From NCBI GenBank assembly GCA_903907985.1, contig CAIVQG010000057.1, positions 78,614 through 142,613 of the forward strand: DNA of 64,000 bases, given 5' to 3'. Shown here piece by piece: positions 28,501 to 57,065 of this stretch. Each line of letters begins with the position of its first letter. Positions within the stretch are counted from its first letter, which is position 1. Below the pieces are notes generated by a model. That model searched no databases, was not told the DNA's origin, and saw only the letters and a list, made by a program, of their open reading frames with translations. The stretch is from an uncultured delta proteobacterium (GTDB lineage: Bacteria > Desulfobacterota > Syntrophia > Syntrophales > Smithellaceae). The position numbers were made by a program, and so were the translations under genes.

Positions 28501-31500
28501 ATCATCGGTAGCGGTGTTTCTCGTCATTGGTTTTACGGGGATGGAATCATAAACCTGTTTGGCAATGTGGGCGATCAACGGGTCCGTGCCGTCATCAATC
28601 ATCTTCTGATAATCAGGTTTCGGATAGACGTTTTGCTTTGTCGCTTCTTTGATCTTTAACGCAGTATTCTTATCGGCAATGTCTTCCCATTTGATGCCGT
28701 TCTTAATGCGATTACGCTTGTTGTAGGTAAGTTCTTCGCCGGAATCTGCGGTAGTTGATGCCTTTTCTCCCGTATTGACAGATTCGTTTTCCAGTAACTC
28801 AGGATAATCTTTTAATGCTTCAGGCGGTACAGTTTTACCAGACTGTAACGCCATATTTACTTCTCGTTTATGCGTCTGTTTACGATGTTCTGTCCATTCG
28901 GGTCCGGTTGGTTTCCCCTCGTAAGTTTTTGACGAATATTCGTCCCGCGTCATTTCCCACGGTTCTTTTTTGGTTTCCGGTGCAGTCGGCCTCTCCTTAG
29001 TTGATTCAAGGTACTTGGCATAATTGTATTCGGTTTTGTTCATGTCGTAAAACGAACCATCTTCGGCAGTCATACGATAACTTATTTTCTTTGGTGGGTT
29101 AGCAATTATCTCCTCTAATTCTTTTAACCTTGCGGCCTTTATGTTCTGATTACCATTGTCAAATATCCGTGAGCGTTCCTGTTTCGCATCAGACACGGTT
29201 TTCTCGTCAATGGATTCTTTGACAACCGGGACCCGTCCTTCGGCGGACATCTTTTCAATCATTTCTCGGCTGGTAACTTTGCCATAATCAGCATGATTTC
29301 TTTTCGCAGATAATGCGCTAAGGACTTTGCCTTTTTGCAATGGATTTAGGTCGGCAATAAAACCCGTTACATGATTTGTCGAGTCTTTGGCTTCGGTGGT
29401 TTTATTAATTACATCGGCGTATGCCTTCCAATAAGATTTAACCTTGTCGGAAGATGAATTATCAATAAATTCTTTCTTTGATTTGTAATATTCAGTAGCC
29501 TTTTCAATGCCCTTGTCTGCAATTAATTCAGTCGCGCTTTTCGTTCCCATCCGGTATTGGTGTTTATCAAGAGTGGCGGGGGCTGCGGCCGCCGTTTCCG
29601 GCGGTCGTGTGACTGTTTCACCACCTGGGCGATCAGCTAAATTATTCTCAATCGGGTTCAATTTGTCGGCATCAATGGCGTATATCCCTTTGTCGTGTGA
29701 TATGGCAGGTGCTTTTGTTGTAGATTCCCATTTTAGTCCCAGCTTTTTAGCCAATGCGGAGACAGCCTCGTTCGTAGTACCGGCTTTTTCCGGATCAATC
29801 CCACCAAACAATGAGCGGAATTCACTTGAAGGGCCGTTTTTCTTGGCGTCGGCTATGGCTTCTTTTACAACTGCCTCATTGTCTGGAGTAATTCGTTCTT
29901 TTACTTTTTCATAAGAACCTTTACCAAACATTTCATTGATAAATTGTTCGCCTGGACCCCAACTGTCTTTATTGATTTTGCTTAAATCATAATTTTCTAG
30001 CCATTTCTGTGCTTCTGCCCGTGTTTTGAATTTCTTTGATTCTTGCGCCCATCCCTTATGCCGAATCCCCGCTTCCCAATAAGGCCCAGGATTGGCCGAT
30101 ATTTCCGGTGCATTAAGTTCAAATTCTATTCGGAGTTCTTTGTTTTCCCACCTAGCACTTCCGCTTTGCCAAAGATCAATTTCTAATCCGTTTAAGTTCC
30201 CCTTCCATAATTTCGCCGCGTCAGACACGGGTTCTTTCTTCGCCGCAAACAGGTCTTCATTCTTCGGCGTGACCTGCTCGGAAAGTGGTTTGCTTATTTC
30301 TGTTTCGGGATTTATAAGACTAAAGGTATCGCGCTCAGACGCACCGGGAATGTCGGTTTGCTTTGCCTTTACTTCTTCTGGCGTCAGTTTTGTTTCGGCG
30401 GGTTTTGGTTCTGCCGTAGATGCTATTTCCTCAAAAAACTTATCTGCTTCATCGGATATGAAGTCTAGTTCGTCTTCTGTGATGTCCTTCTCTGTTGCAA
30501 TTTCTTCAATAGCCGTTGTTTTAAGATCGTTTTCACTTTCTGAAATTGCTCCGGCGTCAATTCCCTCTTCTTCGAGGTTTCTGATTTGTTCTTCATACGC
30601 CATCCTTTCGAGTTCTGCGGCTGTCTGTCTGTAATCGCCGCTGGTTATTTCCCGGTCTGCTACACTTTTAATATGATCCCATATAACGGATTGCCGACGT
30701 GTCATCTGCTTGCCAGCCATCCCTTTATTAATTATGTACGCTATACCTTTGGCGGATATGCTTTCTTTTTGTCCGGTAGGCGAATTCTTACCACCAAACT
30801 GCTTCACCATATCAGAAAACCATCGGGGATAACCTGATTTCAGGTATATGTCTTCTCCCGTGGCTGAATCCGATCCTTTAAATCCTCCCGCTTCGCCGGT
30901 CATGAGGCGCGAGTGCATATCGCCCAGGGCATAGGTCTGAATGTCAGACAGTTTTGTTTCTTCTTCTGTCTCTGCCGCGTGGGCCGCTAACCTTGTGGCA
31001 AGATCCTGGCGCTCAAAAGGTGTGCCGCTAAACATATCCTTTGTACCGGTATTGTGCAAGGATAGACTTTTGCCTGTTTTATACTCAAATAATCTTCTGG
31101 CCTCTTTGTTCTGTGGATGGAGCAGGTCGTTATATTGCCCGGTATCAATCGCGTGGTTCACCCAGGCGGCTTGTCGCAGTGCTTCCTTTTGGGTATACTT
31201 GCCTTTATTATAAAGATACAACAACCGGGCGTCTTTCTTTAATCCCAGCCAGTTTCCTTCGGGGGCTGGTGCCGCGTTTACGGGCGGCACTGTAACTGTG
31301 TCAACACCTGGTTGAACAGCTGTGGTATTGTCCGCAATCCCTGTAACTGCCTGCGTTCCCGCTGCGGCTTGCGAGGATGGCGCAGGTTCAATGATCGGGG
31401 ACGGGGTTGATACATTGGCCGTCTCAATCGGCAAGGTTGCATCGGTTTGCAGGTCCTCGGCCGGTTTTATGGGTTCGGTCGCCCCTGTCAACTCGGCCAA

Positions 31501-32901
31501 CCGTGCCTTATCTTTTTCAAAGGCATCTTCCCAAGTTTTGTAAATATCAGTGCCTTTATAACCGGCATTCTTATCAAGGTAATGCGCCTGTTTTGCAATG
31601 CTGGTTTGCAGTTCACTAATTTCTTTATTGCCCGTTGTGTTTTCTGCCGCCCCCTTCCCTTCCGGTGCGTTCAAATCGTCTCCTGGCGCCTCAAATTCCG
31701 GCACATCCATTTCCATGTTTTTCGCCGGGATAATCTTTTTACCCGATGCCATATCTTTCTTTAATTCCGATTCTATATCGGAACGCGGTTGAATGACCTG
31801 ATTGACTTTTGCTTTCATGTCTCCGGCAATGACTCCGTTCAGACCGTCCCTGAGCGCCGGGTATTTTTCCTTGAAACGGTCAATGTCGCCATCGTCGTAA
31901 ATACCGTTATCTTTTAATGTCTTGATCATTTCCAGCGCGTTATAGTGTGTAAATGGTTTCTCGTTGACCTTACCCGTTCTTAACCCCTCGTCTATTGCGT
32001 CATTAGCAAAAGAACCGACCTGCATTTTCTTTATGAAATCTTCAACCTCGGGAGTTGATTTTGCCCCTTTAATCGCATTGAAGGCCGACGATATTCCATG
32101 TGCGCCGGCAAAGGTTCCCGCACCCGTAACGATATTCTGGATTCTTTGTTGCCAATCTTCGGCTGGTTCCGTGGCTCCGGCACCACCGCCAAGTGCCGCA
32201 CTTGTGACATATCCTAATCGGGATTGTATCGTTTGTTCTGCCGGGGTAAGGGCCACTCTTTCCGCCACGGGCAGTTTTGCATTAGTATTGATCTTCTCCA
32301 GGACTTTGCCCACGGATTCCGGCATTAGCGCCCCTAATCCTTTTGATATTACCTTGCCACCCGCGCCGAAGGTCCCGAACATGAGTGCGTCTTTCCATGC
32401 GTTGCTCAACCTGTCTTCGCCTTCTTCGGGTTTGCGGATCGCTCCGTAAATGCCTCCAAGGACTCCACTCGTTGCGGCGGCACCTGCTACCGTTGCGCCC
32501 TCTGGCAACATAGCCGCTGCCGGTATTAATCCGACGCCCATTCCCGCAAGCCCTGCCGCACCTGTGGCTATTTTATGCACCATGCCGGCATCTTCGGGAG
32601 TCTTTGCGGCTGGGGCATACCCAAAGGTCGCCCCATGAACAAATGCAGTAGGAATGTCCTCAAAACCGGCTGGTGCAATATGAGCAACTGCATCGCGTAG
32701 TTTTTCGGTGAAGGGTCGTCTGTTTTGGGTGTCCTCCTGGACGACAGAATCAATGCCCTTTGCCTTCTTCCAAGTATCGTAATCAGGGTATTCTTTATCG
32801 TATCCGCCGCGAGTGAAAGCATCCTTTGCCACGGCTTCCAAGGGAACGTCGCCATATTGATCTTTATATTTTTGCTGGTATCCGAGAATATCAAAAGGCA
32901 T
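22513..32901 (-). CDS. Giant polyvalent virion protein (~3460 aa) with zincin metallopeptidase motifs and a RadC/JAB domain
   Basis: A single uninterrupted ORF. HEFGH lies at 27508-27522 in the context GAGSLAHEFGHAVDHYF, with an upstream FGNW...LNGMLGIAVGAQG block. A second HExxH (HESVH) lies at 26377-26391. The RadC-type JAB motif AHNHPSQ lies at 25675-25689. I chose the ATG at 32901, which has a GAGAGGA RBS; the track start at 32991 overlaps the upstream gene. Confidence 0.8.
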   Translation of the reverse strand: MPFDILGYQQKYKDQYGDVPLEAVAKDAFTRGGYDKEYPDYDTWKKAKGIDSVVQEDTQNRRPFTEKLRDAVAHIAPAGFEDIPTAFVHGATFGYAPAAKTPEDAGMVHKIATGAAGLAGMGVGLIPAAAMLPEGATVAGAAATSGVLGGIYGAIRKPEEGEDRLSNAWKDALMFGTFGAGGKVISKGLGALMPESVGKVLEKINTNAKLPVAERVALTPAEQTIQSRLGYVTSAALGGGAGATEPAEDWQQRIQNIVTGAGTFAGAHGISSAFNAIKGAKSTPEVEDFIKKMQVGSFANDAIDEGLRTGKVNEKPFTHYNALEMIKTLKDNGIYDDGDIDRFKEKYPALRDGLNGVIAGDMKAKVNQVIQPRSDIESELKKDMASGKKIIPAKNMEMDVPEFEAPGDDLNAPEGKGAAENTTGNKEISELQTSIAKQAHYLDKNAGYKGTDIYKTWEDAFEKDKARLAELTGATEPIKPAEDLQTDATLPIETANVSTPSPIIEPAPSSQAAAGTQAVTGIADNTTAVQPGVDTVTVPPVNAAPAPEGNWLGLKKDARLLYLYNKGKYTQKEALRQAAWVNHAIDTGQYNDLLHPQNKEARRLFEYKTGKSLSLHNTGTKDMFSGTPFERQDLATRLAAHAAETEEETKLSDIQTYALGDMHSRLMTGEAGGFKGSDSATGEDIYLKSGYPRWFSDMVKQFGGKNSPTGQKESISAKGIAYIINKGMAGKQMTRRQSVIWDHIKSVADREITSGDYRQTAAELERMAYEEQIRNLEEEGIDAGAISESENDLKTTAIEEIATEKDITEDELDFISDEADKFFEEIASTAEPKPAETKLTPEEVKAKQTDIPGASERDTFSLINPETEISKPLSEQVTPKNEDLFAAKKEPVSDAAKLWKGNLNGLEIDLWQSGSARWENKELRIEFELNAPEISANPGPYWEAGIRHKGWAQESKKFKTRAEAQKWLENYDLSKINKDSWGPGEQFINEMFGKGSYEKVKERITPDNEAVVKEAIADAKKNGPSSEFRSLFGGIDPEKAGTTNEAVSALAKKLGLKWESTTKAPAISHDKGIYAIDADKLNPIENNLADRPGGETVTRPPETAAAAPATLDKHQYRMGTKSATELIADKGIEKATEYYKSKKEFIDNSSSDKVKSYWKAYADVINKTTEAKDSTNHVTGFIADLNPLQKGKVLSALSAKRNHADYGKVTSREMIEKMSAEGRVPVVKESIDEKTVSDAKQERSRIFDNGNQNIKAARLKELEEIIANPPKKISYRMTAEDGSFYDMNKTEYNYAKYLESTKERPTAPETKKEPWEMTRDEYSSKTYEGKPTGPEWTEHRKQTHKREVNMALQSGKTVPPEALKDYPELLENESVNTGEKASTTADSGEELTYNKRNRIKNGIKWEDIADKNTALKIKEATKQNVYPKPDYQKMIDDGTDPLIAHIAKQVYDSIPVKPMTRNTATDDDMKLYISAVNRVMDGVKSWTNNKEAIAAWAGKQAKIAGANLGRPTSITDMAESNKTLLDMVYPEGWKNYRAEVMLLGGNKLLSALQPGYQQGKKAMAEVKAGWPVKQESWQRQGYSINGKEAAEITNGYQHEKDGTKTDLFFVRIKDSYSSHGKGYLTKDEAQQTIDKMKPVLLLDKYKRIVGQYDTKEEAAEAAREKVKRENKPTINEKGISVEAADRTGPARRLEGEDISSDKLRETFGFKGVNFGNWMKGDTNEAERQLHLNHAYDSFMDLAEILNVTPEAMSLNGMLGIAVGAQGTGKFAAHFVPGVNEINLTRTSGAGSLAHEFGHAVDHYFARQAGLEGRGEPYLTEHVGHGIGEDGYTKRNGQKVKAFEEGIRPEITALFNSIVKSMNKKTIDVSPEEVAKEIADRKQKAQNNIDGWLKNIRRDFTGHETEFDKLADRIKNLDLGDGKISAGPVHSFSPVVAEIRDLYKKIKGRIYPLDSIKGLQANVDHYAYLNSENYGEKHIPTSREVTTDYAKEAGKLDKDKSGKPYWNTNVEKFARAFDAYVSDTLEAKAAKNTYLSHGRNDETVPKGTERETIDKAFGNLIEEIKTKETDKGTALYSVEKATSDPLPTLDDVKSVFKGQEVTQLEDGSIAIKTQGGYDLIVKSVDRIDPDHAVLQIGHGREFLKDGEMIAGKYQDGAIELVKGVGDKWTLHHESVHFMEDMGILNENEVGLLQRHIRNLVNDGKFETKNEKDIGGAEDRANFLADALTKEPKGLLGRITSKIQDFVDKIVNAFGIRTVKGITRDISSGKINNQVDNRGTGVYNNMKGETVYGSQVSDTTGGALRTDTGTNAGIPYQPTVVGREKVGSVSAATRKITSAQEAAEVASQYLSKYPDEHLLSLVLGKNGKLMHIYRHTVGLRGQSQASPSAIIGEALNTPGATTIIVAHNHPSQYTKFSDEDNVFYRDLKNMAEGSGLDVQDSIIVTATKYSSYEEGENTKVIGTGEGKIKIPLIGRVFESIHNGEKISGPDQALESAQRHIPGGGTLLLDGNNAIAGKIDLSDYRKIRGESQKELLQELEKRNARRMIVYSPAREIEPSEAHNIKMFINATSGEINLLDIIDSRGSMENRGMMPVERGTSFYSVSKTIDEYKDKLDKTTDKVATIKNAKEGLELAYDGLKRAFYPAARTENANKAAETIISQMGKNFHQEALLKGKLNEVSKHYSESTSVAAKALDMMQTSTGVLADATFNKMPKEKQYDFIARIQNGKRQETPELQGIADTVSKMFDDLYKDAESVTPGAVGYRKGYFPGMWEDEGAAERFFNDRAKNMEGSKAFTKNKVYDDIQEGIAAGLKPKGTPLDMAFAKMHEVQKYVTTHRVMQEMEADKTAVLIKASEPAPSGYTLIPEPYGIVTKRAKVNLAGQQTNLSNELQGKPEMETFRYAVKDDVAQVINNYLSRSLYENKYVGSAYAGYMNAANTLNQFQLGVGSAFHAGFTSMEAVISKFALGVKAMARGDVADAVKLMAESPLQVYKNPMLGDKLIRAYQGESVSGKEIPQIVKWLEMAGARAHMDNRFRTTTTDKMIKNWSEGSKVAAIARSPFALVEQMARPILEWLVPRQKFGVFAELATEWNKQNPGATHEDTRTAMQYIWNRVDSRLGQVVYERLFTNNVAKNVVQALLRAPGWTGGTIVEVGGGVNDFANVFRDMAHGKKPVMTDKMAYTISLLTITGLINGVMTKLLTGEDPKDGKDLLAFRTGKIDEHGNPERMMLPTYAKDIYAYINKPGTTLLNKTHPMISLMADIAKNKDYYGTQIRDKESNPAVQTAQAGVYAAKAFVPFWMRGAQKASDRGDSAASMLSPLIGIMPATAEFTKTKAQKLMSEILQDRPKGSMTKEKADTNQLKQKLETRLRNHDNTANTDVQEYFKAGKLSRNDVISIQKAVRIPYMVHAFQSLSFPEAMRVYSVATPDEKKTLAPLLRQKMHLISNMPPENRQDALLKYREVMGG

Positions 32902-32914
32902 TGTTTTTCCTCTC

Positions 32915-33631
32915 TTAAAAACCAAAAATGTTCGCTCTTTGTTTTTTTCGTACGCCGGGAAGCATCCCAAGATATTTATCTTCTTCTTCATCTTGTGTCA
33001 TTGGCTGGGGACCGGATCGGAACTCCATACTCTGCCCACCAGTTAATGTTGATCGTGCTGCTGGCAGGACACCCGGGGTTGCGAGAGTTGCGGTTGGCCC
33101 TATGGGATCACCAGGTCCAGCCGGAGTTATTGCCGGACCCGGTTTATCAAACGACCTCACTGTTGCCCCACTGTTGCCCTGATTTTGGTCCATTAATTTT
33201 TGGCGCAAGTCGATAATCTGATCTGATGTCATTAAAGGATTACCTTTAATCGCCGCCGTAATGACTGCCTCATGGCTTCCTGCCTTCCCCGTTGTACCAG
33301 CATATAGTCGATCGGCTTTATACTTTTCTCCCTCAAGGGCACTGGCAGCGACGTCTCGATGCTGGTTTGCACCAATCTGAGCGACATTGGCAGCGCTGTC
33401 GTTTGCCAGGTTTTGTCTGGCCAGCAATCCGGTTTCGGTAAGGTTCTGTTTTACCAGGTCGTTATCATGGGCCCGAATGTCTTTAGCGGTGGCGAATTGG
33501 TTTGCTTGCTCCGTTGCCCTGTGTTGTTCGTAAAGCAGGTCTGATCTTCTTTTTTTCTCCTCTGCTTGCTGGAAAATATCGCCGCCTTTTACCTGTTCCA
33601 TTATACTGTCAATCATAGCGTTCAAATCCAT
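32915..33631 (-). CDS. Hypothetical virion protein
   Basis: 238-aa ORF tightly packed in the late operon, with a low-complexity Pro/Gly-rich C-terminal half. Confidence 0.55.
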   Translation of the reverse strand: MDLNAMIDSIMEQVKGGDIFQQAEEKKRRSDLLYEQHRATEQANQFATAKDIRAHDNDLVKQNLTETGLLARQNLANDSAANVAQIGANQHRDVAASALEGEKYKADRLYAGTTGKAGSHEAVITAAIKGNPLMTSDQIIDLRQKLMDQNQGNSGATVRSFDKPGPAITPAGPGDPIGPTATLATPGVLPAARSTLTGGQSMEFRSGPQPMTQDEEEDKYLGMLPGVRKKQRANIFGF

Positions 33632-37472: not shown

Positions 37473-39572
37473 CTACTTTGTCAGGACGATTGGTATTAAC
37501 TTTATGGTATCAAGCGACTCATAATCCGCAACAGACAATTTCCATTTTTTCGCTTTTAATTCATGGGAGGCAACGACTTTGCCCCGGGTGTCAATATTGT
37601 AGACCTGTCTTGATCCGTCGTCGGTTTCAAAGACCATTACCGGGTTAGTTCCGGATATCCCCAAATAACCATGGCGGAATCTCTTTTGATTGGGTGCGCC
37701 GAAGTCTGTTTCGCTTAAAATCGCCCCAGTGTGTATTGGACTGCCGGCGTCGGTTGTCCCGGTGAGTTCGTAAATCCCCGTGTCATTGGCGCCGAAAGCT
37801 CTGTTCTCGAAAACGCAATAAGAGTTGAAATCAAATCCGGAATACATGGACGGCATGAACTTAGGAGTATTCAAAACGTAACATTCCCAAACTTCCCCGC
37901 TGAATTCTACCGTGACATCCATGGCCAGCGTGTCATAAACCGCTGAGTAAAGAGTACCGTGGCTGGTGAGCGTTTCCGTGAAAGTGATTGGGTCAGTAAC
38001 CGTCAGGCCAATTCTGTTTATCAGGCTTGCCGCATCCGCCAAACCGATTGATTCCTGAACCGTGTCCATGAACAACGCCGCAATGCTGGCAACATCAACC
38101 GCGAATAGAATGTCGTTAATCAAAAGACTCAAAACATGAGCCGGAGAATCGGATAGCTCCACGGCGTCGTTTACAGATTCGCTTCCGGACCGGATCGCAT
38201 TTACCAATTCCGTAAATCCAAGGTATTCGAGAACGGCGATGGTCAAGGCTCGGGTTACGATATCGGTGATCGTGATTGATTCTGTTATTGTGTCCGAAAA
38301 GCGTTTCCCCATCTGCAAAATATCGTAAAGATTAAGGGTGTCCGGTACAATCTCCCGGCCGTTCCAGTTGTTTGTCTGGCTGTCAATCAAGGTAAGCCAA
38401 TCAGAAATAATCAGGCCCATGACCGTTGAAAGAGAATCGGTAAGCGTTAAAGCCTCTATTATTGACGTTGCCCAGGCCGGATTGAGTTCGTCGTAAAGCA
38501 TGATTATTTCTTCCATGAGTAAGGTAAAATAGAAAGAGCTACCATCCACCATGCCCAGGCTCTCGGTAAGTGTGTCGTTATAATGAGTAGGCGAGGTGGC
38601 CTCGAATAGATCATTAACTGTGGCCTGTTCGTAGAGTTCATTTACCCTGTTGACACCAGTAAAATCCCAACCAGTATTGTAAAAACCGTCTTCATTCCCG
38701 GCGCTGGTTAATGCGTTAAACGTGGCCCCGCCTGATGCACCAGCTCTAATCAATTTGCACTTAGTTGCGGTAACGGTTCCGCTGGATTTTACTAAGTTAA
38801 ATGTAGATGCGCTGCGTAAGATAAGACTATAATTATTAACACCTGTAAATGTCGCGGATGTACTTATCGTAGTAGTGGTTGCTCCGGAATATCCATCACC
38901 AAATAATATATCGCCATCTCCGGTTATCGATAATGTCTTTATTGTGGCCGTATCAAAACTATTTAAAGTAACAGTAACGCCGGAAACTGCGGAGATATTT
39001 ATTGTTCCATATGTTCGGGTAGAATAGGTATTACAACCAAAATCCATGTAACAGTTATTTGATCCAACTGCATAAAAAGCGGTAAATGCGAATGTCGCAT
39101 TCGCTGCATCCATTGCAGGACAATTCTGGGCATCTACAAGGGCTATGAATGTGCCCCATGTAGCATTGGTGCCATTGACCGTTATAGTCGATGTGCCCAA
39201 AGAGCATACGGTACAGGGATACCCTATAGAAAAACTCCGATTTACCGTTATGTTATAGTTATTCGTGGTTAAACTGCCGGAGCAATCAAATGAATATATA
39301 TTAGTGAGAGCCGAGGATAATGATAAACTACCTGCGGATGTAACACTGTATACAACGGCTTTCGAGGCTGAATTATTGATGGCGCAGAGAACTGCCATGT
39401 TTATGGTGAGGGTTAAATTGTATCCATTGCCAGTAGGAAACGAAGAAGCGTCGAATACAGCCGTATCTCCTGTTGTAGGAACAGACGCACCGCCTGTCCC
39501 ATTACTGGATGTTGACCAGTGGGCCGTATCAGAAAAATTACCGCTATTTCCTATCCAATATCGATTTGCCAC
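37473..39572 (-). CDS. Tail fibre/spike-like protein
   Basis: 699 aa. The N-terminus MANRYWIGNSGNFSDTAHWSTSSNGTGGASVPTTGDTAVFD and Thr/Ser/Asn-rich beta-type repeats are typical of phage fibre proteins. Confidence 0.5.
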   Translation of the reverse strand: MANRYWIGNSGNFSDTAHWSTSSNGTGGASVPTTGDTAVFDASSFPTGNGYNLTLTINMAVLCAINNSASKAVVYSVTSAGSLSLSSALTNIYSFDCSGSLTTNNYNITVNRSFSIGYPCTVCSLGTSTITVNGTNATWGTFIALVDAQNCPAMDAANATFAFTAFYAVGSNNCYMDFGCNTYSTRTYGTINISAVSGVTVTLNSFDTATIKTLSITGDGDILFGDGYSGATTTTISTSATFTGVNNYSLILRSASTFNLVKSSGTVTATKCKLIRAGASGGATFNALTSAGNEDGFYNTGWDFTGVNRVNELYEQATVNDLFEATSPTHYNDTLTESLGMVDGSSFYFTLLMEEIIMLYDELNPAWATSIIEALTLTDSLSTVMGLIISDWLTLIDSQTNNWNGREIVPDTLNLYDILQMGKRFSDTITESITITDIVTRALTIAVLEYLGFTELVNAIRSGSESVNDAVELSDSPAHVLSLLINDILFAVDVASIAALFMDTVQESIGLADAASLINRIGLTVTDPITFTETLTSHGTLYSAVYDTLAMDVTVEFSGEVWECYVLNTPKFMPSMYSGFDFNSYCVFENRAFGANDTGIYELTGTTDAGSPIHTGAILSETDFGAPNQKRFRHGYLGISGTNPVMVFETDDGSRQVYNIDTRGKVVASHELKAKKWKLSVADYESLDTIKLIPIVLTK

Positions 39573-39581: not shown

Positions 39582-40151
39582 CTACACATCTGCTAATGTT
39601 ATTGTACACGTTACTAGAAGAACATCATTGGCCACGACTGATTTCGCAGCCGCAAATTGACTTGCCGCAAATAAAATCCCGCCGCCGGCCGTATTGCCCT
39701 TTGTTGTCGGAGCTGAACCGCCGCCGCATAAAAAAGCCCCGTAAATCGTCTTTGTGGCGTTCATCGTAAATGTCGACTTATTGGCAACATTGGTCGTAAC
39801 CTTGTTGACTGCAGCAGCTTCATTATAGACCACTCTCGCAGATTCATTATAAGCCGTGCTTTCCGTAAATCCGGGTACGGCATAGGTATCAGTGACTAGC
39901 GGTGTATAATTATTTTCAAACAATCCCATGTACCAGGTGCCGATTGCCGTTGTTCCGTGAAAGGTAGCATCAAGCATGCTGTTTAATCCCTGCGTTGTGG
40001 TCACATTCTTTTGCGCCCACTGGTCAACCAGTTTGCCGTCCCGGTATTGTTCAAATTCCCACCATGATCCGATAGGGATAATGGCTTTCATGGACGGGCT
40101 GCTGATTAATTCAGCCGAAAACTTTGCATTTAGAGGAAGTATGGATTTCAT
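39582..40151 (-). CDS. Small beta-rich tail-region protein (paralogue of 42192-42776)
   Basis: 189 aa. It shares YxGxFxNNxTPxxxDT, FTxNAxxTxYGAFL and DVLxVT blocks with the 194-aa protein. Confidence 0.55.
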   Translation of the reverse strand: MKSILPLNAKFSAELISSPSMKAIIPIGSWWEFEQYRDGKLVDQWAQKNVTTTQGLNSMLDATFHGTTAIGTWYMGLFENNYTPLVTDTYAVPGFTESTAYNESARVVYNEAAAVNKVTTNVANKSTFTMNATKTIYGAFLCGGGSAPTTKGNTAGGGILFAASQFAAAKSVVANDVLLVTCTITLADV

Positions 40152-40153: not shown

Positions 40154-42022
40154 TTATGCTCCTGTATTTAATCTATCTGTGTTCGGTATGTAGGCAAACC
40201 CCAATAGGTTTGCTTCTGTCGTGCCAACCGCGGAGGTAAGAGCGCTGACAAATGGTGAACCATCTTTATACATTTGCTTGGTCCGGGTATATGGCGACGC
40301 CATCAATACCCAATTAAATCCTTGTACTTTTACATCACCTATTTCGAGATCGTTCCAAAACTCTCCATAAACTGTATGCCCATCCACGGTTCCACCAAAA
40401 GGATTCGTCCATAAATAAGTTTCCGGAGGTTTCTGGGAAGCATCAAAACCTTCTTGATATGTAAGATTTTTACTTATAGAAGATGACATATAGAGTCCAG
40501 GGTGGTATGTAACCGCATTGTCCTGATTCCAACTTTGCGCAGCAACACCCTGGGAATAATTATTATATCCATCCGGAGACCAGTAATGGGTGGTTACAAT
40601 GGAACCCACCTTCTTAACTGATGCAGGAATAGTGTTGGCGGACCAATTATTGATCCATGTTACAGTGTTTTCATAATCATAAGGTAAATTTGGACCGGGC
40701 CAGCTTCCGCCAACGAATGCGTAGTCGAGAGAAGATGTTACGAATATATCATTTACTTCATAATATCCTTTTTGGGATGTAACAGACCGGGTGTGTATAT
40801 CACCATCGGCAGGATAGTTATAGGGCCACGGCGAAGCAAATGTTCCGTCGCGTCTGACCGGAGCGCCACCCGCTTGGCCGGGACCAGCAACGAGGGTCAG
40901 TTTGTTTTCTTCAAGACGGTATTTATATAGGTTTGGGTTTGTCCAATATATAAAGTTATTATCAGGTGAAAAATTAATCGAGAATCCGTACTGATCAAAC
41001 ATACCGTAACAATCAGCCATATCATTACCCGCGGAACCAACATAGTATAGGATATTCAGCAGGGGATCGAGAATATAGAGATAGAAATAATGGCCGGTCC
41101 CAGCATAGTTTGCCGAAGAAACCATCCAGCTAAATGGCGAAATCGCGGCCCAGTTAATGCCAATCTGCCTAAATCGTAAAATTAAATCTACCAGAGGGAA
41201 CGTACCATGTTTAAGGTCCGCATTGGCAACAATGGAATTAGTAGAAATATCCAAGGCCCAATCGCCTGTGGTGGTTTGGACCACAAGCCATGCATGGCCA
41301 ACCGGTGTGGCCTCATTAGTTACACCGCATTCGATATGCAATGCTGACGCATGGTACCCCAGGTCCAATAGCGCCTTTGCTTTTGTCAGGGCAAAGTCTT
41401 CGCAGTCACCCGTCTCGCCCGTTGCCATGATCCGCCAGACATCCTGGCCTGCGGGCTCTGCAACATATGTATGCGAACCGTTGACCGCTGCATTGACTGC
41501 CTGCATATCCGCCAATAGTTGAGTCGTCATGGGGAGCACATTATTGCTGTTATTGGTAACTAACGGGAACGTGGGATTAGCCGCCGCGAACGTGGCCCAC
41601 CCCGGATACTGATTCTGGCTGATATACAGGGATGTGGAAATAAAATATAAATCCCTTTTAGTGCTATGAACCACACCATTCAAATCAGTACTAGGCACGT
41701 TATGGGAAAATCTTTTCACCCGAAATGTAAACAGATCAGTAGAATTAGTCGTAAAGACCTGGTCATATGTTTTTGTGTCAACAATGGTCCCCAAAGAATC
41801 TAATTTACAAGTAGCGATATTCAATCCGCTGTTTTGATAAAAAATATAGCAATCACCCATAATGACAGGGGCAGCGCTACATCGCCTTATTCCGTCCGTA
41901 TGACCAATCACTTTATATTCCGCGACTGTGAAGAACTCCGAACTTTGCTTTTTCATCACAATGACTTCGTCTCCAACGTCAAACCCGTCTGCAGCTCCTT
42001 GAATCGCTCCGTTGTCACGCAA
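40154..42022 (-). CDS. Tail-associated protein with transglutaminase-like Cys-His peptidase core; reading frame continues upstream across one TGA
   Basis: 622-aa ORF beginning at an RBS-less TTG. GDCEDFALTKAKALL places the Cys at 41402-41404, and GHAWLVVQTTTGDWALD places the His at 41294-41296. The same frame is open up to the ATG at 42184 except for the TGA at 42038-42040. Confidence 0.6.
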   Translation of the reverse strand: MRDNGAIQGAADGFDVGDEVIVMKKQSSEFFTVAEYKVIGHTDGIRRCSAAPVIMGDCYIFYQNSGLNIATCKLDSLGTIVDTKTYDQVFTTNSTDLFTFRVKRFSHNVPSTDLNGVVHSTKRDLYFISTSLYISQNQYPGWATFAAANPTFPLVTNNSNNVLPMTTQLLADMQAVNAAVNGSHTYVAEPAGQDVWRIMATGETGDCEDFALTKAKALLDLGYHASALHIECGVTNEATPVGHAWLVVQTTTGDWALDISTNSIVANADLKHGTFPLVDLILRFRQIGINWAAISPFSWMVSSANYAGTGHYFYLYILDPLLNILYYVGSAGNDMADCYGMFDQYGFSINFSPDNNFIYWTNPNLYKYRLEENKLTLVAGPGQAGGAPVRRDGTFASPWPYNYPADGDIHTRSVTSQKGYYEVNDIFVTSSLDYAFVGGSWPGPNLPYDYENTVTWINNWSANTIPASVKKVGSIVTTHYWSPDGYNNYSQGVAAQSWNQDNAVTYHPGLYMSSSISKNLTYQEGFDASQKPPETYLWTNPFGGTVDGHTVYGEFWNDLEIGDVKVQGFNWVLMASPYTRTKQMYKDGSPFVSALTSAVGTTEANLLGFAYIPNTDRLNTGA

Positions 42023-42037
42023 CGGTGAATCAGGCAG

Positions 42038-42184
42038 TCAGTGATAAAAAAGAGGGGCAGTAACGGAGGAGCCGCCCACGGTTACAGTGCAGGTATCCGT
42101 AGCGGCATCCAGTGCCGTTATTGTTCCTCTGAGAAATTCCCAGTTTAGAACATCCCCGATATTTGTGAAGTCGTGAGTCGGCAT
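42038..42184 (-). CDS. 48-codon N-terminal segment, in frame with the 622-aa tail ORF and ending at TGA
   Basis: The ATG at 42184 lies 7 nt after the upstream stop, with a GGGA RBS-like sequence. The product is MPTHDFTNIGDVLNWEFLRGTITALDAATDTCTVTVGGSSVTAPLFYH followed by TGA. Confidence 0.4.
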   Translation of the reverse strand: MPTHDFTNIGDVLNWEFLRGTITALDAATDTCTVTVGGSSVTAPLFYH

Positions 42185-42191
42185 ATCGTCC

Positions 42192-42776
42192 CTAACTCGT
42201 GGTGCAAGAGATCACATAAGTAACTGCCAGTACGTCGGCATCGATAACTGCCCGGGCCGTCCCGAACTTCTTGGCTGCCATCAGATAGCCATCCGTGGCG
42301 GTCTTGGCCATGGATGTCGAAAGGAACGCACCGTAAACTGTAATGCTGGCGTTTACGGTAAAACTGGCTGCGCTGGCCGTATTGGTGCATGAGGCCGTTG
42401 CGGTAGAGGCAATCGTGTAACCCGGCTTGTTTGTTATCGGAGAATCATAATCGGCGTCCTGGCATTCACCATAAGAACCTGCGGCTCCGAGTTTTGCGGC
42501 TGCCGTGTCTCCTACTGCCGGAGTCACGTTGTTTTTGAAAATACCGACATAAAATATGGGAATGCCCACCTTTGATGTAGTCCCGAAAATGACATTCAGC
42601 AAATACGCCATGCCTTCCGTGGTGAAGGTGTTGCTGCCCTGATCGTTGTGGGCCAGTAGCAACCCGTTCCGGAAATGGTCCGTTAAAACGTGTCCGTGCA
42701 TCTGCAAACCAGACTCGCCTATGTGTTTTGCCGCATACCTTAACTGTGCATCGTCCCGAAATTTGTTTAAATTCAT
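42192..42776 (-). CDS. Small beta-rich tail-region protein (paralogue of 39582-40151)
   Basis: I chose the ATG at 42776 with an AAGGAG RBS (194 aa); the track start at 42806 is a TTG. See the paralogue blocks listed for 39582-40151. Confidence 0.55.
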   Translation of the reverse strand: MNLNKFRDDAQLRYAAKHIGESGLQMHGHVLTDHFRNGLLLAHNDQGSNTFTTEGMAYLLNVIFGTTSKVGIPIFYVGIFKNNVTPAVGDTAAAKLGAAGSYGECQDADYDSPITNKPGYTIASTATASCTNTASAASFTVNASITVYGAFLSTSMAKTATDGYLMAAKKFGTARAVIDADVLAVTYVISCTTS

Positions 42777-42808
42777 CGTCTCATTCTCCTTTATGTTTAA
42801 TGACAAAT

Positions 42809-42922: not shown

Positions 42923-44248
42923 CTAAACTACCATTCCTCCCCGCGTGACTGTACATGTGGCGCTGTCCGCAAATCCTGCGCTACTTCCCATTAAATTTGC
43001 GCTCTTGTTATATAAATCTATTCGCCCATTTTTAAAAACATCATAAGTCTCGTCGTCCCTGAATCCGACACCGCTGCCTATGTTCCCCGCCCTGAAACTG
43101 GTTAGAAATTGGAACACTCCCTCAAGGTTGCGGTATAAAGAGGCCCCTCTTGACGGGAGACTCATCTTGATCTTGTTTTTTGTCAGGTTAAAAAGTTTCC
43201 CCGAAGAATTCCCGGCGACAATCCCCTCTGCGGTCAACCATACCGGCACATCGACAAATCCTTGTTCCGCCGATCCTGATGTGCTTCCAAGATCAGGAAG
43301 ATTATTGCAATAGGCCAAGGTCCCCTTGATCGATCCGGACCCGGCCTCAGATTGCGCCATTTGCTCCGGTTCCGTACCTGCCAGAAATCGCGTCTTTTCA
43401 TTCATCCCGATAAACAGTCCCGTGGATACTTTGGCAATCAGCGTGACCTTGCCTTCAAAAGAAAACTTGTTGGAAGTCTGATTAAATAAAGCGAACTTAA
43501 AGGGCTCGCTGTAATAGACCACATTCCCGGACGATCCCCAAATCCGGCCAAAGGCATAACATAGATTCTCCAAATTAGGCGGCGGGTTGCATGAAAATGA
43601 CGGCAGGGGTTCTGCTGTGGGCAGGTCAACAACTTTGCCTGTGGCGCCAGCCAGATAGAAAATACCCTCATCCGTGTCGGTTATCCAAACCAAAGCGGAG
43701 GCGGGACGATTTAGAATCTGAATTCCGCCCTCGGCTGTGAGTTCGATACTCGTTGTCGGGCCATTCCCCGAGATTTCAGTTCCTGCAATATTGGTCATGC
43801 ACACATGGTAAGTGCCGGCAGGGAGATTACCGTCTCCGGAAAGGAGCATTGGACCAGGAGGTTGTGGAATGCCCCAGGATGAAATGGAATTAGTCGAAAT
43901 ATCGAATACCCCCTGCCAGTAGGGGTTTGATATATAAACTTTATCTTCCGCCTCCACATAGGCAAACGGATATGACGGGCCGGATACGGCGCCAACAATT
44001 ATCGCCTGCCCTTGATGAATACGATACATCGCCGTAGCGTCCGCACACAACATACATGAGGCACCTGCCCATAAACTGTGCGCCCCCGGAAGATTAACGA
44101 ATGATGTCTTTCCTTTACGAGCGATTAAGTGCCCTGTTTGGTCAACGTCAGCATTCAATATGACGCGAGGCTCAACGATTCCGCCTTTGTAGTAGATACG
44201 CCTGACGTTGTTCGCCCCGGAAAATCCGTTTATATTAATTTCACCCAT
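42923..44248 (-). CDS. Hypothetical phage tail/baseplate-region protein
   Basis: 441 aa from the ATG at 44248, which overlaps the upstream stop as ATGGGTGA. The track start at 44305 is less likely. Confidence 0.55.
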   Translation of the reverse strand: MGEININGFSGANNVRRIYYKGGIVEPRVILNADVDQTGHLIARKGKTSFVNLPGAHSLWAGASCMLCADATAMYRIHQGQAIIVGAVSGPSYPFAYVEAEDKVYISNPYWQGVFDISTNSISSWGIPQPPGPMLLSGDGNLPAGTYHVCMTNIAGTEISGNGPTTSIELTAEGGIQILNRPASALVWITDTDEGIFYLAGATGKVVDLPTAEPLPSFSCNPPPNLENLCYAFGRIWGSSGNVVYYSEPFKFALFNQTSNKFSFEGKVTLIAKVSTGLFIGMNEKTRFLAGTEPEQMAQSEAGSGSIKGTLAYCNNLPDLGSTSGSAEQGFVDVPVWLTAEGIVAGNSSGKLFNLTKNKIKMSLPSRGASLYRNLEGVFQFLTSFRAGNIGSGVGFRDDETYDVFKNGRIDLYNKSANLMGSSAGFADSATCTVTRGGMVV

Positions 44249-45272
44249 CGCAAGCCCCCCTGTCCTCAAAGCCACCAGATCCGTAGTATTGCGGCTCGCT
44301 ATCAATCCCGATAAAGTCGATTAAATCGGCCATGGCTTCAAAAAACTTGCCAGTATGATACTTGGTCCCGATCCCGGAATTGTCCTGGCCATCTTCTATC
44401 GATTCCCCGAAGATCTCTTTGCAAACATAATGTTTGATTAATTTCTTTTGCAAATGCTCCGGAAGACAATCTGGTTCGTCAGTTCCCAACGTCAACGGCG
44501 TCGGTTTCCGGTAATAATGAATCCCAATGTTTGCGGGTGCGGCCGGAATCCCCTGATAATAAAGTTTCCGCCCTTTTACGCAAACGCGATAAACAGAACC
44601 GGTTTCGGCAAGGGACATATTGCTGCTTTGTTTAAGGAACAGATTGAATGAATAATACCCGCCGCCCCTCGGCGGGTTGATCTTGTTCCAGGCGCCGTCA
44701 AAAACATTAAACACATTTCTCTGATAATCTGCCGGCAAAGAAGCATAAGCCAGAGTCGTTGTGATCACTGTGTCTGATTTGTAAAGGTCGGGCAACGGAG
44801 GCGATACTTCGCTGTCCGGCATCCGGATCCCGCCGGCAATAGCCGAAATGGCGTCATTTATCCGGTCAGTTAATACAACGTCGTTATAGACCGGATCTTG
44901 TATTACTCCCTGAATAGCGGCAAGCAAATCCGACAAGCATGGCCCCGTTCCCGCTTCGCCTGTATCTATAGGTGTTTCCTCTACCGGCAATATGCCTTCC
45001 AGTTCATAAAGTGACCCAAGACTTCCCACGATCCGGCAATTGATCAGGTAATTATGCCCGCCGGTACCGGCACGAGTGTATCCATAAACAAGCGCTCCGG
45101 TAATAGTTTGTTTCGTGACGTCCAGAATGGTTGCGGATACATCCTCCAGGGTAGAAGTGTCCACGGCGGAAATTACTGCGGACGTTATTGTTTCCGCTCC
45201 CAGGCGAGCCGTAAAATCAAAACTGACAGCAAACGCCTCAGAAGGTTGTTTGGTAGAAAATGAATTTGCCAT
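44241..45272 (-). CDS. Hypothetical phage structural protein
   Basis: 343-aa ORF whose start overlaps the upstream stop. Confidence 0.55.
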   Translation of the reverse strand: MANSFSTKQPSEAFAVSFDFTARLGAETITSAVISAVDTSTLEDVSATILDVTKQTITGALVYGYTRAGTGGHNYLINCRIVGSLGSLYELEGILPVEETPIDTGEAGTGPCLSDLLAAIQGVIQDPVYNDVVLTDRINDAISAIAGGIRMPDSEVSPPLPDLYKSDTVITTTLAYASLPADYQRNVFNVFDGAWNKINPPRGGGYYSFNLFLKQSSNMSLAETGSVYRVCVKGRKLYYQGIPAAPANIGIHYYRKPTPLTLGTDEPDCLPEHLQKKLIKHYVCKEIFGESIEDGQDNSGIGTKYHTGKFFEAMADLIDFIGIDSEPQYYGSGGFEDRGACDG

Positions 45273-48499: not shown

Positions 48500-49477
48500 T
48501 TAAACCGGTTCGGTCAGGTTCGTGTGAAGGACCTGCATTTTCCGGTTGGAGCAATACAAATTGCCTCTCCAACGGGTATCCGCCGTAATTACGTCCGGCT
48601 GTCCCAGGACTTCCTTGGAGACCCACTTCGGGGCCGTGAAGTTGTAATCCTTGTGACTGCGCAGAGACAGGAAGTTGGTGTTCAGCGCATACAGATTGCC
48701 TGCAGTGAGCCCGGCGTCGGCTACAATCGGGGCACCTTTGTGGGTGATATTGTCCCAGCCGGCTTCCACCGCTTTGGTGTCCGTGTAACGCTGTTGGGGA
48801 TGAAGCGATCTTTCGTAACCGTCCTTTAATGTTGGCGTGGTGACGATGAAATCAGGCAGCATATCCTTGAAATCGCCCATGTTCGGCGCCCTGAAAATCT
48901 TCTGCAGGATGTCGAAGCCGATTGCTTCCGAGTCTGTGATAACATTGGCCTTCCAATTGGGCATTGCGGCTTCGGTGATGGCACCGTAAGCAACGGCGGT
49001 ATTGGTGTTGAACAAATCGCCCAGGCCGTTAATATTATCTGCGGTTGCCGCGGCGGCAATGATATCTGTCGCCATTTTGATACGCGCCGCCTTGATGATG
49101 CTCTGCATGTATTTCTTGGTTAAATCGATGATCGCTTCGGCGCCCGCATTCTGCGTCATGTCGTCCAGATTCAGGGTATTGGAACCGTAAATACCGGCCC
49201 AGCCGAACCGTGCTGCATCGATGATGTCCACTTTGGACTGATTGATAACGGTAGTGGCACCGTAAGATCCGGAGTTAGAGTTCTGGTATTCCAACGGAAC
49301 CTTTACCATTAAGCCGCCGTCAACGGTTTCGTGGGGCTTTACTTCCCAATTGTCTTTGATGAGGGCGTTGCCCATCAACTTCCAGAGCAATGCGGAAGCT
49401 CTGTTTAAAATGTCCACCGGCTCGATATTGAGCCAGTAATAGTCTGTCGTTGCGTTTAACTGATTGATTAATCCCAT
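48500..49477 (-). CDS. Major capsid protein (candidate)
   Basis: 325 aa, placed directly after the scaffold-like gene and followed by a stem-loop. The call rests on size and position; I verified no motif. Confidence 0.6.
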   Translation of the reverse strand: MGLINQLNATTDYYWLNIEPVDILNRASALLWKLMGNALIKDNWEVKPHETVDGGLMVKVPLEYQNSNSGSYGATTVINQSKVDIIDAARFGWAGIYGSNTLNLDDMTQNAGAEAIIDLTKKYMQSIIKAARIKMATDIIAAAATADNINGLGDLFNTNTAVAYGAITEAAMPNWKANVITDSEAIGFDILQKIFRAPNMGDFKDMLPDFIVTTPTLKDGYERSLHPQQRYTDTKAVEAGWDNITHKGAPIVADAGLTAGNLYALNTNFLSLRSHKDYNFTAPKWVSKEVLGQPDVITADTRWRGNLYCSNRKMQVLHTNLTEPV

Positions 49478-51246: not shown

Positions 51247-53187
51247 TTACATTGTCGGCGCATTCGCCTGCTGCGGCGCTGCTTTCCGTTTTTCGTTCTC
51301 CTGCGTCTGCGTAGATGACGCCATCAATGCCTGTTTTAACTGGATGGCTGCTTCTTCCGGCATACCTGCATCGATAAGGATTTGCAGCGCCTGGTCAAGC
51401 TGGCTCTCAGCGGTACGTTCCAGTTCTTCTTTCCAACCGGGCCACTTCAGAGTTTCCAGTAATCCTCTTTGACCGATGGCATGGACTTCATAAAGCCATT
51501 TGGCCATATCTTGTAATTGTAAAGTCGTCCGTGGTGTTGTGCTTCCCGCTTCCACCATGTAATTGAATTTCCTGCCGGCGTAATCCGTCCCTCTGAATTC
51601 GACAGTGTCCCCTTCCACCTTGGTCGTATCTGTTGTCGTCCCGAAGTTCTGCCATAAACCAATCGCCCACTTTGCCCTTTGCTCGGCAATATTATCAATG
51701 GCCGCTGTCTTGGTCTGCATGAGGACTTGATTGCGTTCCTGGAGTGCTACGATAGCGGAGGCGGCGATGACTCCCGACGGGGCAACGCCTCTATCAGCGT
51801 CTTCGATCTGGTAAACCCTGTCGAAAAACCGGACGATCAGATCCAGAACTTGAAAAAAGGTTTGTGGAAGATTCGGTATCTGCATGAACTCAATCCGGGC
51901 ATTCGGAGTGGTCGGCATTAAGATCAATCTCCCGGCCTTTTGAATTGAGCTCTCAATCATTTCCCTGGTTATGCCGCAATGCTGCTGCACTATAAGAGGC
52001 GGCGCCATGACATTGATCACATAGGCAATCAGTTTAGTGATTATCTGATTAATCTTACTGAGCAAATCCCCAACCTGTTCGGCTGCGGCAAAGCCCCATA
52101 TCGACACACCATCCTTATAGGAATTGGCATAATAAACGGGCAGTCTGCCCCACGGATAGGTATTCCGGGCCTGATCAACCGGTAATTTCGCGTTGATATT
52201 GGGATTGGCGCTGTCATCCAGTACGATGAAACCGCTTTTGATTTTCGTGTCGTTGCTTTTGGTTACGGTTATTTTCCTGATTCCGTCCGGGTAAACAGAC
52301 TCGTCGGCGCTGGCTTCGATGATTAATGCTTCCCCCGTCTCATTGAGAACAGGGTTCCCGGCATCATCTAGCAATGGTTTTGATAGTGTCCGGGTTACCT
52401 TCCGGGTGTCCCTTAACCAAACCTCGATAACCAGGCAGCGCTCCATGGCCTTGTTGCTATTGTCCTGTCCGGGCGTCATGACGGTCATGGCGTCTGCGTA
52501 ATTTCCTATGCTCTGCTGGATGCCGTAACCCTGTGGTTTATAGTCCTCCCGTTCCGCGCCCATGAGTTCGTAGGCTTCATCCGGGGCGATGTCCTTAACT
52601 CCAAAAGTGGCTTCCATGTTGGATATAAAATCAACATAGGCAAACCCGACATAGGGCGCTTCTTCCGAAATATCTTCCCAATTTCCGGGACACGGGAAAA
52701 ACGAAAAAGGGTCGGTAACCATAATGTCCGGCCGGTCTTTGCCTTTATCAAAATATGGTTTTTCCGTTGTAATCCCGTAAAGCTCCATCATTCTGGCCGA
52801 TGCTCTGGTTTTTGTCTGCTGGTCTGTTTCCTTCCACCACTTCTTTAATTCTTGGCTCAGGATGTTTTCAGTCCCATCGTCTAATCCGTCCAGGTCCACG
52901 ACTTCTCCGGTCGGGTTCCGGGCGGTTATATTGGAGACGGTTCGCTCGATATTGGCAAAGTAAAGATTAACAATGGTGTTTTGCTTATATTCCGTTGAAT
53001 ATCCCTTGCGCCCGGAGCGCTGTTTATTCTGCCGGCCGCGATAGAGGGCATAATTGGCAAGGAATCCGGCGTTTTTCCCGAGTCTTTCCTTTTCTAACCG
53101 GGCTATATCGAACAGCATATAGGCAAATTCGGCAACGTCGGTGTGGCCTTTCGGCGGTATGTTCTGTAAGTTCCATTGAGCGTCCAT
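51247..53187 (-). CDS. Portal protein (candidate)
   Basis: 646-aa ORF between the terminase and scaffold/capsid genes. The call rests on size and position. Confidence 0.6.
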   Translation of the reverse strand: MDAQWNLQNIPPKGHTDVAEFAYMLFDIARLEKERLGKNAGFLANYALYRGRQNKQRSGRKGYSTEYKQNTIVNLYFANIERTVSNITARNPTGEVVDLDGLDDGTENILSQELKKWWKETDQQTKTRASARMMELYGITTEKPYFDKGKDRPDIMVTDPFSFFPCPGNWEDISEEAPYVGFAYVDFISNMEATFGVKDIAPDEAYELMGAEREDYKPQGYGIQQSIGNYADAMTVMTPGQDNSNKAMERCLVIEVWLRDTRKVTRTLSKPLLDDAGNPVLNETGEALIIEASADESVYPDGIRKITVTKSNDTKIKSGFIVLDDSANPNINAKLPVDQARNTYPWGRLPVYYANSYKDGVSIWGFAAAEQVGDLLSKINQIITKLIAYVINVMAPPLIVQQHCGITREMIESSIQKAGRLILMPTTPNARIEFMQIPNLPQTFFQVLDLIVRFFDRVYQIEDADRGVAPSGVIAASAIVALQERNQVLMQTKTAAIDNIAEQRAKWAIGLWQNFGTTTDTTKVEGDTVEFRGTDYAGRKFNYMVEAGSTTPRTTLQLQDMAKWLYEVHAIGQRGLLETLKWPGWKEELERTAESQLDQALQILIDAGMPEEAAIQLKQALMASSTQTQENEKRKAAPQQANAPTM

Positions 53188-56872: not shown

Positions 56873-57065
56873 GACATTCCCCTTGCTTACTGCGTGGTGC
56901 CCTGAATACTGTCCGGGGTTCTGATCCGTGACCGTCTGAATAATCATTCGCGGCTACCGGCTCACAATTATGGCAAAACTTGCGCTGATCGCAGTTATGC
57001 CCAATGTGCTTTTTGCGGCACCGTGGACAGATACAATTAACCTTTGCGGAATTTCTGCGAGTCAT
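56862..57065 (-). CDS. Small Cys-rich zinc-ribbon protein
   Basis: 67 aa with CICPRC...CHNC, overlapping the terS start by 11 nt. Confidence 0.45.
   Translation of the reverse strand: MTRRNSAKVNCICPRCRKKHIGHNCDQRKFCHNCEPVAANDYSDGHGSEPRTVFRAPRSKQGECHAG

Follow-up and report, generated by a model that had tools for sequence, protein, structure and literature searches.

A candidate selenocysteine codon with a SECIS-like hairpin in a family of phage virion-associated proteins

A gene in the late region of a prophage carries one in-frame UGA codon that is very probably read as selenocysteine (Sec), through a selenocysteine insertion sequence (SECIS) in the messenger RNA (mRNA) and the elongation factor SelB. 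The gene lies on the minus strand of the stretch analysed here, 64,000 nucleotides (nt) of contig CAIVQG010000057.1 from an uncultured delta proteobacterium (hereafter the window), which comprises a bacterial chromosome segment and an integrated phage. Its predicted product is a virion- or tail-associated protein. The UGA stands at codon 49, where homologues carry a conserved Cys, and the same codon recurs in divergent phage loci together with a hairpin at a fixed distance downstream. On this comparative evidence the protein is a strong candidate for the first bacteriophage-encoded selenoprotein family.

Interrupted reading frame and downstream hairpin

A single frame runs on the minus strand from an ATG at 42184-42182 to a TAA ending at 40154, and the TGA at 42040-42038 is its sole interruption. 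The ATG is preceded by a Shine–Dalgarno-like AGGGA (42193-42189) and comes 7 nt after the TAG of the upstream gene (42194-42192). The initial annotation, made from the letters of the window alone, had described an open reading frame (ORF) of 622 amino acids (aa) at 40154-42022 that starts at the TTG at 42022 without a Shine–Dalgarno sequence, a frame open for 54 further codons up to this ATG, a single intervening TGA and, 12 nt 3' of it, a perfect 6-bp hairpin with a 5-nt loop containing GU (42009-42025). The coordinates bear out each of these observations. The features of the gene are as follows.

40154..42184, minus strand: full-length recoded coding sequence, 676 codons including the UGA at codon 49, plus the TAA stop
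42182..42184, minus strand: ATG start codon; the N-terminus MPTHDF is conserved in homologues
42038..42040, minus strand: in-frame UGA, codon 49, the proposed Sec codon, aligned to the conserved Cys of the FYHC motif
42026..42037, minus strand: 12-nt spacer between UGA and hairpin, invariant in length in 14/14 TGA loci and variable in sequence
42009..42025, minus strand: SECIS-like hairpin CCGUUG-CGUGA-CAACGG, with a 6-bp stem and a 5-nt loop that begins 18 nt past the UGA
42020..42022, minus strand: TTG (Leu55) within the 5' arm of the hairpin, the default start of ORF finders and gene callers, which yields the truncated 622-aa ORF
41879..42184, minus strand: N-terminal domain, aa 1-102, delimited from alignments and the AlphaFold (AF2) model of a homologue, with conserved C32 (codon 42089-42091), H48, U/C49 and C102 (codon 41879-41881)
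41225..41602, minus strand: BTLCP / Peptidase_C93 transglutaminase-like cysteine peptidase domain, aa 195-320 (Pfam PF06035)

Taken alone, the hairpin is within chance. Perfect 6-bp hairpins with loops of 3-8 nt begin at 0.19% of window positions, and such a stem starts 9-15 nt downstream of 12 of the 1056 TGAs on the plus strand and 15 of the 1095 on the minus strand (~1.3%); the fold of the 45 nt at the hairpin has a z-score of -1.5. The hairpin is placed far beyond chance by its conservation in homologous loci.

Its geometry agrees throughout with the bacterial SECIS (bSECIS) consensus of Zhang and Gladyshev, as summarised in PMC13188914, which has a loop of 3-9 nt, an upper stem of 4-16 bp, a UGA-to-loop distance of 16-37 nt, a minimum free energy (MFE) of -7.5 kcal/mol or below, and a G among the first two loop positions, with G or U as the usual next base. 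The loop CGUGA has 5 nt, with G at position 2 and then U or G, the stem has 6 bp and the loop lies 18 nt from the UGA. A 26-nt stretch that includes the hairpin folds with an MFE of -8.9 kcal/mol, and a 45-nt stretch with one of -12.6 kcal/mol. The resemblance to a minimal bacterial SECIS proposed in the initial annotation thus holds for every published criterion. An extension of the hairpin by a lower stem was rejected: the bases next to the 6-bp stem show no conservation, and the folds obtained disagree beyond it.

Recurrence of the TGA and the hairpin among homologues

A protein search with the read-through product returned 118 homologues, many of which cover 99-100% of it, including the 48 residues before the TGA. 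The initial annotation had asked whether homologues have Cys or TGA at this codon and whether the hairpin goes with the latter. Both residues of the pair occur: codon 49 encodes Cys in 58 of the 59 homologues that span it (Thr in the other), as part of a conserved F-Y-H-C motif, and is TGA in at least 14 divergent loci, and the hairpin accompanies TGA, not Cys.

Eight of the homologues start at residue 55; DNA was fetched for seven, and the eighth (P0068) shares a contig with locus L024. Six of them (P0055, P0058, P0057, P0041, P0067 and P0068) have TGA at codon 49 and the same hairpin exactly 12 nt on. P0049 and P0061 were ruled out as TGA forms, being Cys loci with contig-edge or gene-caller starts; a start at residue 55 is therefore a good but imperfect proxy for TGA. 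Further loci came from IMG/VR, GTDB genomes and JGI metagenomes, scanned with N-domain peptide patterns that excluded the Cys, and from two look-ups. The total is 14 non-redundant TGA loci (the window, L001, L002, L003, L008, L016, L021, L022, L023, L024, L093, L095, L102 and L103), ~45 Cys loci and a small number of loci with Ser, Gly, Thr or Ile instead. The TGA loci have a mean amino acid identity of 47% and are interspersed among Cys loci in the N-domain tree.

At least five of the six base pairs are present in register, at exactly 12 nt, in 14/14 TGA loci and in 2/34 non-redundant Cys loci (Fisher p = 2.5e-10, uncorrected for phylogeny). All six pairs, with G-U counted, are found in 12 of the 14 TGA loci, for which the consensus is CCGUUG-CG[U/G]GN-CAACGG. 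Pairwise identity across these loci is 90% over the 17 hairpin nt, 59% in the spacer (minimum 8%) and 46-50% in the coding flanks. At third codon positions, the hairpin codons of TGA loci have an entropy of 0.33 bits and their neighbouring codons one of 1.53; the corresponding values for Cys loci are 1.57 and 1.66 bits. Leu55 is TTG in every TGA locus inspected (14/14), despite the six Leu codons available. Within the loop, positions 1-4 are fixed as C-G-[U/G]-G and all four bases occur at position 5.

Sequence changes within the stem are few. L095 has a compensatory change (CCATTG...CAATGG, G-C to A-U), and a G-U wobble occurs in L103 and in the Cys locus L020. In a covariation test 97.6% of cells were paired, four of the six pairs never varied and one pair was compensatory. 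The support for an RNA element is accordingly UGA-linked conservation at synonymous sites and not covariation. Within 41989-42008 (codons +10 to +12 after the UGA), the Ala codon just 3' of the hairpin is GCG in 13/14 TGA loci, with a third-position entropy of 0.41 bits versus 1.99 in Cys loci; the RNA element therefore reaches a few nt past the 6-bp stem, and no conserved lower helix that would account for the GCG conservation was found.

A hairpin is kept in some loci with a Cys codon (TGC), namely L015, L017, L018 and L019 (position ~3148) and L020 (position 2357). The loop of the L015 group is CGCGA, with C at loop position 3, and L020 has the G-U pair in its stem. The N-domain tree places L021 and L022, both TGA loci, as sisters of the L015 group. 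This group and L020 are apparently recent conversions from Sec to Cys whose SECIS has yet to decay. Scanning IMG/VR for TGA-N12-CCGTTGCGKGMCAACGG gave matches only from this protein family; the element is therefore common to no other phage gene family.

The frequency of TGA forms was estimated with a profile of residues 55-106 against 1.84 billion representative proteins, which matched 303 proteins at E <= 1e-3 and 164 at E <= 1e-10. Among the best 150 representatives, 48 start exactly at residue 55, the first start codon past the TGA. The hairpin demands R-[D/A/V/G]-N in the encoded peptide, the codon G-N-C at the middle position keeping the loop G and the first C of the stem, and 43 of these 48 proteins have it; Cys loci often have Ser at that position, whereas residue-55 starters hardly ever do. 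Both newly sampled residue-55 starters (2/2) had the TGA and the hairpin. With the start-artefact rate of 2/8 taken into account, some one-quarter to one-third of the 50%-identity clusters in the family would be TGA forms. Gene callers annotate a 48-aa ORF and a downstream ORF at TGA loci; they systematically split or truncate these genes, and about one-third of the family's representative proteins start at residue 55.

The same comparisons bear on whether the prophage is decaying and the TGA inactivates the gene as a nonsense mutation, or whether the TGA arose in sequencing or assembly. TGC or TGT becomes TGA by a single-base change, and the hairpin of a single sequence is no more than chance would give. 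The same TGA is, on the other side, found in 14 independent assemblies from different samples and across deep divergence. The 48 codons upstream of it have a dN/dS of ~0.16 among TGA loci where measurable, dS being saturated in most pairs, and are thus, on these estimates, under purifying selection. Downstream, the BTLCP domain scores above its Pfam threshold, and the terminase, portal, capsid and adaptor ORFs of the prophage are uninterrupted. Because the TGA recurs, the upstream part is selected, the BTLCP domain scores as it does and the neighbouring structural genes are intact, decay, which the initial annotation had listed as an option, is rejected; mutation and error together are effectively refuted by the comparative data and retain next to no probability.

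Stop-codon recoding exists in some phages. Another reading is that TGA has been reassigned throughout the phage or its host, to Trp or Gly (as in genetic codes 4 and 25), or that stops are recoded in the late genes of the phage. Apart from this gene, no long frame in the window, with its ~40 kb of prophage genes, is interrupted by TGA, and related phage contigs yielded no further case. TGA terminates 6 of 27 prophage ORFs, related phages use it as an ordinary stop next to the gene, and ARAGORN detected no suppressor tRNA in the window and 22 related loci. Genome-wide reassignment is refuted by these observations, and recoding of this general kind has a vanishingly small probability.

Decoding of the UGA and the role of residue 49

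Under the proposed mechanism, 42184-40154 on the minus strand would be one cistron for a 676-residue virion- or tail-associated protein. A ribosome initiating at the ATG at 42184 would arrive at the UGA at 42040-42038, where the mRNA hairpin at 42025-42009, acting as a bacterial SECIS with its apical loop 18 nt past the UGA, would recruit the host SelB-GTP-Sec-tRNA(Sec) complex in competition with RF2. Sec would be placed where Cys49 (FYH-C/U) is otherwise conserved, and translation would run on through the BTLCP domain. Since termination would compete with Sec decoding at the UGA, some 48-aa by-product and little full-length protein are expected, and a low yield would suit a low-copy tail component. 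Alignment of the UGA with Cys, its recurrence and the TGA-linked hairpin support the option that the initial annotation had put first, selenocysteine or programmed read-through, and from them we infer dependence on SelB and the presence of selenium in the product.

A two-product design, also raised in the initial annotation, would have translation stop at the UGA and free a functional 48-aa peptide, while re-initiation at the TTG 15 nt downstream makes the 622-aa protein. In that design the hairpin would couple the two translation events, and the products would associate non-covalently. The invariance of the TTG within the hairpin is compatible with re-initiation, the two ORFs are those that gene callers report, and selection acts on both halves of the gene. 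The break, however, falls exactly on the near-invariant Cys49, removing a residue that co-varies with Cys102, and it cuts a compact domain that is predicted with high confidence. The TTG lacks a Shine–Dalgarno sequence and is buried in the stem, which needs TTG in any case, and coupling predicts neither a spacer of fixed length and free sequence nor the G-[U/G] loop rule of SECIS elements. A split gene is thus unlikely, and we judge it much less parsimonious than Sec insertion.

Read-through could also proceed without Sec, by a near-cognate tRNA (Trp or Cys) or by the SelB*/selC* tRNA(Cys) route, giving a product without selenium. Of the bacterial stop codons UGA is the leakiest, and codon 49 has Cys as its ancestral or alternative residue. 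In phage Qbeta, read-through of a UGA in a structural gene produces A1, a longer, low-copy virion protein. The present gene is like Qbeta A1 in that a UGA lies within a phage structural gene and its read-through product is longer; in Qbeta the inserted Trp is incidental and both products are functional, whereas in the present gene the UGA stands in for a conserved Cys close to the N-terminus and comes with a SECIS-type hairpin. Near-cognate Trp would displace that Cys. A UGA-linked hairpin that fits the SelB-type SECIS consensus indicates SelB-type delivery, and TGC and TGT are one base away and have been reached repeatedly, yet TGA is kept in a quarter to a third of the clusters. Overall, we regard decoding without Sec as improbable.

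The selC*/SelB* system of Deltaproteobacteria belongs to the same host lineage (Smithella and relatives) and likewise reads UGA via SelB-like delivery (PMC5389517). The selC* tRNA(Cys)UCA, which translates UGA as Cys, was found in a Smithella composite genome; selA, selB, selC and selD are complete in all selC*-carrying genomes, and their hosts possibly read some UGA/SECIS sites as Cys (PMC5389517). For the Smithella-like host of this prophage, these reports are indirect evidence of Sec machinery. As a host tRNA and elongation factor the pair is not part of this locus, and the selC* gene is absent from the window. In selC*-carrying Smithella-type hosts, the UGA/SECIS described here might alternatively be read as Cys.

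Some results count against Sec insertion, in addition to the invariant TTG. An Rfam scan of 41800-42250 at E values up to 10 returned chance matches only, without a SECIS family; bacterial SECIS elements are heterogeneous according to the literature that gives the consensus (PMC13188914). No tRNA-Sec (selC) was detected by ARAGORN in the window and the 22 related loci. The Fisher test ignores the phylogenetic non-independence of the loci, and the near-invariance of the stem leaves formal covariation support weak, with the one double change equalled in 70 of 500 shuffles. The protein is also not an obvious oxidoreductase, the usual home of Sec.

The arrangement matches that of bacterial selenoprotein genes, of which Escherichia coli fdhF is the prototype: the UGA aligns with Cys, a small stem-loop within the ORF follows directly, and the SECIS constrains the encoded peptide, here P-L-R-[D/A/V/G]-N-G. 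Unlike typical members of that group, the gene belongs to a (pro)phage late structural operon and encodes a virion- or tail-associated product that is no recognised oxidoreductase, and, unlike in other bacterial SECIS elements, the stem sequence is almost invariant across very divergent genes. The fdhF SECIS has a bulged U, and none is evident in this hairpin. The NCBIfam selenoprotein models did not match the candidate protein.

Viral precedents are the glutathione peroxidase (GPx) selenoproteins of molluscum contagiosum virus and fowlpox virus (PMC8310308, PMC1802603), and a 2021 review of recoding lists these two poxvirus GPx genes as the only viral selenoproteins (PMC8310308). As proposed here, they are viral proteins that rely on host Sec machinery, and the fowlpox SECIS likewise lies in the coding region. 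They differ in belonging to eukaryotic viruses and being captured cellular enzymes with a eukaryotic SECIS and SBP2, whereas the present case involves a bacterial virus, a SelB-type SECIS and an apparently viral family. A full-text literature search, of incomplete coverage, returned only eukaryotic-virus work and no report of a phage selenoprotein, and neither phage nor transglutaminase-like proteins are mentioned in a 2026 review of the prokaryotic selenoproteome or in the BSepDB and deep-Sep papers. The mechanism as such is already known; the novelty lies in its proposed occurrence in a family of structural proteins of bacteriophages.

The central domain of the protein, aa 195-320, matches the BTLCP family (PF06035; for example LapG) with E = 1.1e-17 and 64.8 bits, against a gathering cut-off of 27, and contains the candidate catalytic motifs GDCEDF, GHAWL and DWALD, recognised by eye. 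The Sec/Cys residue lies outside BTLCP, in a separate N-terminal module of ~100 aa that is conserved and is fused to unrelated C-termini in other phages. The AF2 model of a 62%-identical homologue is beta-rich, with a predicted local distance difference test score (pLDDT) of 91.8. Foldseek comparison of the N-domain with the Protein Data Bank (PDB) gave P2 gpV and the R2 pyocin spike as best matches, both weak (E ~0.013, template modelling (TM) score ~0.4), and weak matches in BFVD (E ~1e-3 to 1e-2) were to minor tail, baseplate hub and Gp5/Vgr OB proteins; tail fibre proteins are also among the weak fold matches. These models fit, but do not prove, a tail-tip or tail-anchoring domain. The label 'tail protein' in the initial annotation is accordingly plausible, with moderate support from the place of the gene behind the head-tail adaptor and from the weak tail-spike and minor-tail fold matches.

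Residue 49 co-occurs strictly with Cys102, which is present in 54/54 sequences with Cys or Sec at 49; all seven non-redundant Ser/Gly/Ile/Thr-49 variants but the Thr variant lack it (L042 is 5'-truncated). His48 is invariant in the N-domain, and Cys32 varies independently of residue 49 and Cys102. Because of this co-occurrence, residues 49 and 102 probably form a disulfide (a selenylsulfide in Sec forms) or share a metal site with His48. A wider proposal is more tentative: the family may be a widespread one of tail proteins in phages of anoxic habitats, in which, for about 30% of the sequence clusters, Sec has a structural role in the N-terminal domain, as a selenylsulfide with Cys102 or in a Se-metal site with His48. 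Were it so, the cross-link would withstand strongly reducing surroundings, the production of infectious virions would depend on host Sec machinery and selenium supply, and phages would toggle between Sec and Cys by one base as hosts or selenium availability change.

If Sec is confirmed, Sec recoding would reach viruses of prokaryotes and an extracellular structural protein, and phage assembly may be gated by the selenium status and SelB of the host. The many Sec/Cys pairs of the family, with SECIS kept or lost, would offer a natural test of Sec preference outside classic redox enzymes, and the 17-nt SECIS, very compact and well conserved, could serve engineering.

A subfamily of the N-domain has FWH-S/G in place of FYH-C (L025-L028, L041, L044, L045, L063, L067; GenBank MK170447.1, 21267-21539). 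Its sources include the Methanosarcina virus MetMV and contigs of metagenome-assembled genomes (MAGs) of Methanoperedens and Peptococcaceae; from these the N-module seems to be common to bacterial and archaeal viruses of methanogenic habitats.

Prophage and host context

The phage late region extends from ~17.5 to 57 kb of the window, with nearly all long ORFs on the minus strand, and includes the following genes.

56252-56947: small terminase
54933-56252: large terminase
51247-53187: portal
48500-49477: major head protein
42923-44305: head-closure/adaptor-like protein
42192-42806, minus strand: phrog_8123 protein, directly adjoining the candidate Sec gene
39582-40151, minus strand: second phrog_8123 paralogue, directly adjoining the candidate Sec gene on its other side
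37473-39572: virion structural protein
22513-32991, minus strand: polyvalent protein of 3492 aa with LPD1 and RadC/JAB domains
18094-18621: lysozyme

In a related contig, the gene two positions further upstream matches Pfam SU10_adaptor. Genes similar in size to the two phrog_8123 paralogues (~185-200 aa) flank the candidate in L003, L093, L094, L095, L102 and L103. The 3492-aa product, with its LPD1 and RadC-like JAB domains, is probably an injected polyvalent protein. In the related phage L003, an ORF of 2630 aa lies immediately upstream of the tail genes.

A tRNA-Lys(UUU) at 17314-17388 on the plus strand, the only tRNA in the window, marks the junction of the host genes and the lysis end of the prophage and is likely to be the integration site. 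Further along the window, however, no stretch of 14 nt or more from the tRNA-Lys region recurs as a direct repeat, and no integrase gene was recognised.

Host genes at 52-17134 comprise acr3, arsC, an arsR-type regulator, hgcA, hgcB, serC, serA and purA. The purA product shares 84% identity with its counterpart in a Smithella MAG, and the named matches that follow come from Smithella, Smithellaceae and Syntrophaceae; judged by these identities, the host is Smithella-like. None of selA, selB, selC and selD is present in the 64-kb window, and its host flank, an arsenic and hgcAB island, holds no host selenoprotein gene for comparison of SECIS elements. The part at 52-10912 is a metal/metalloid island with ACR3 arsenite efflux, a thioredoxin-type ArsC, the ArsR-type regulator, hgcA/hgcB and an MddA-like methyltransferase, and also encodes DsbD-like and thioredoxin-like proteins that faintly resemble the selenoprotein TsoB. 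Just past the terminase end of the prophage, a 996-aa ORF on the plus strand (58014-61004) has a reverse-transcriptase domain that most resembles the antiviral Drt3a and retron reverse transcriptases (E = 5e-13, under the family cut-off); it may be a defence gene.

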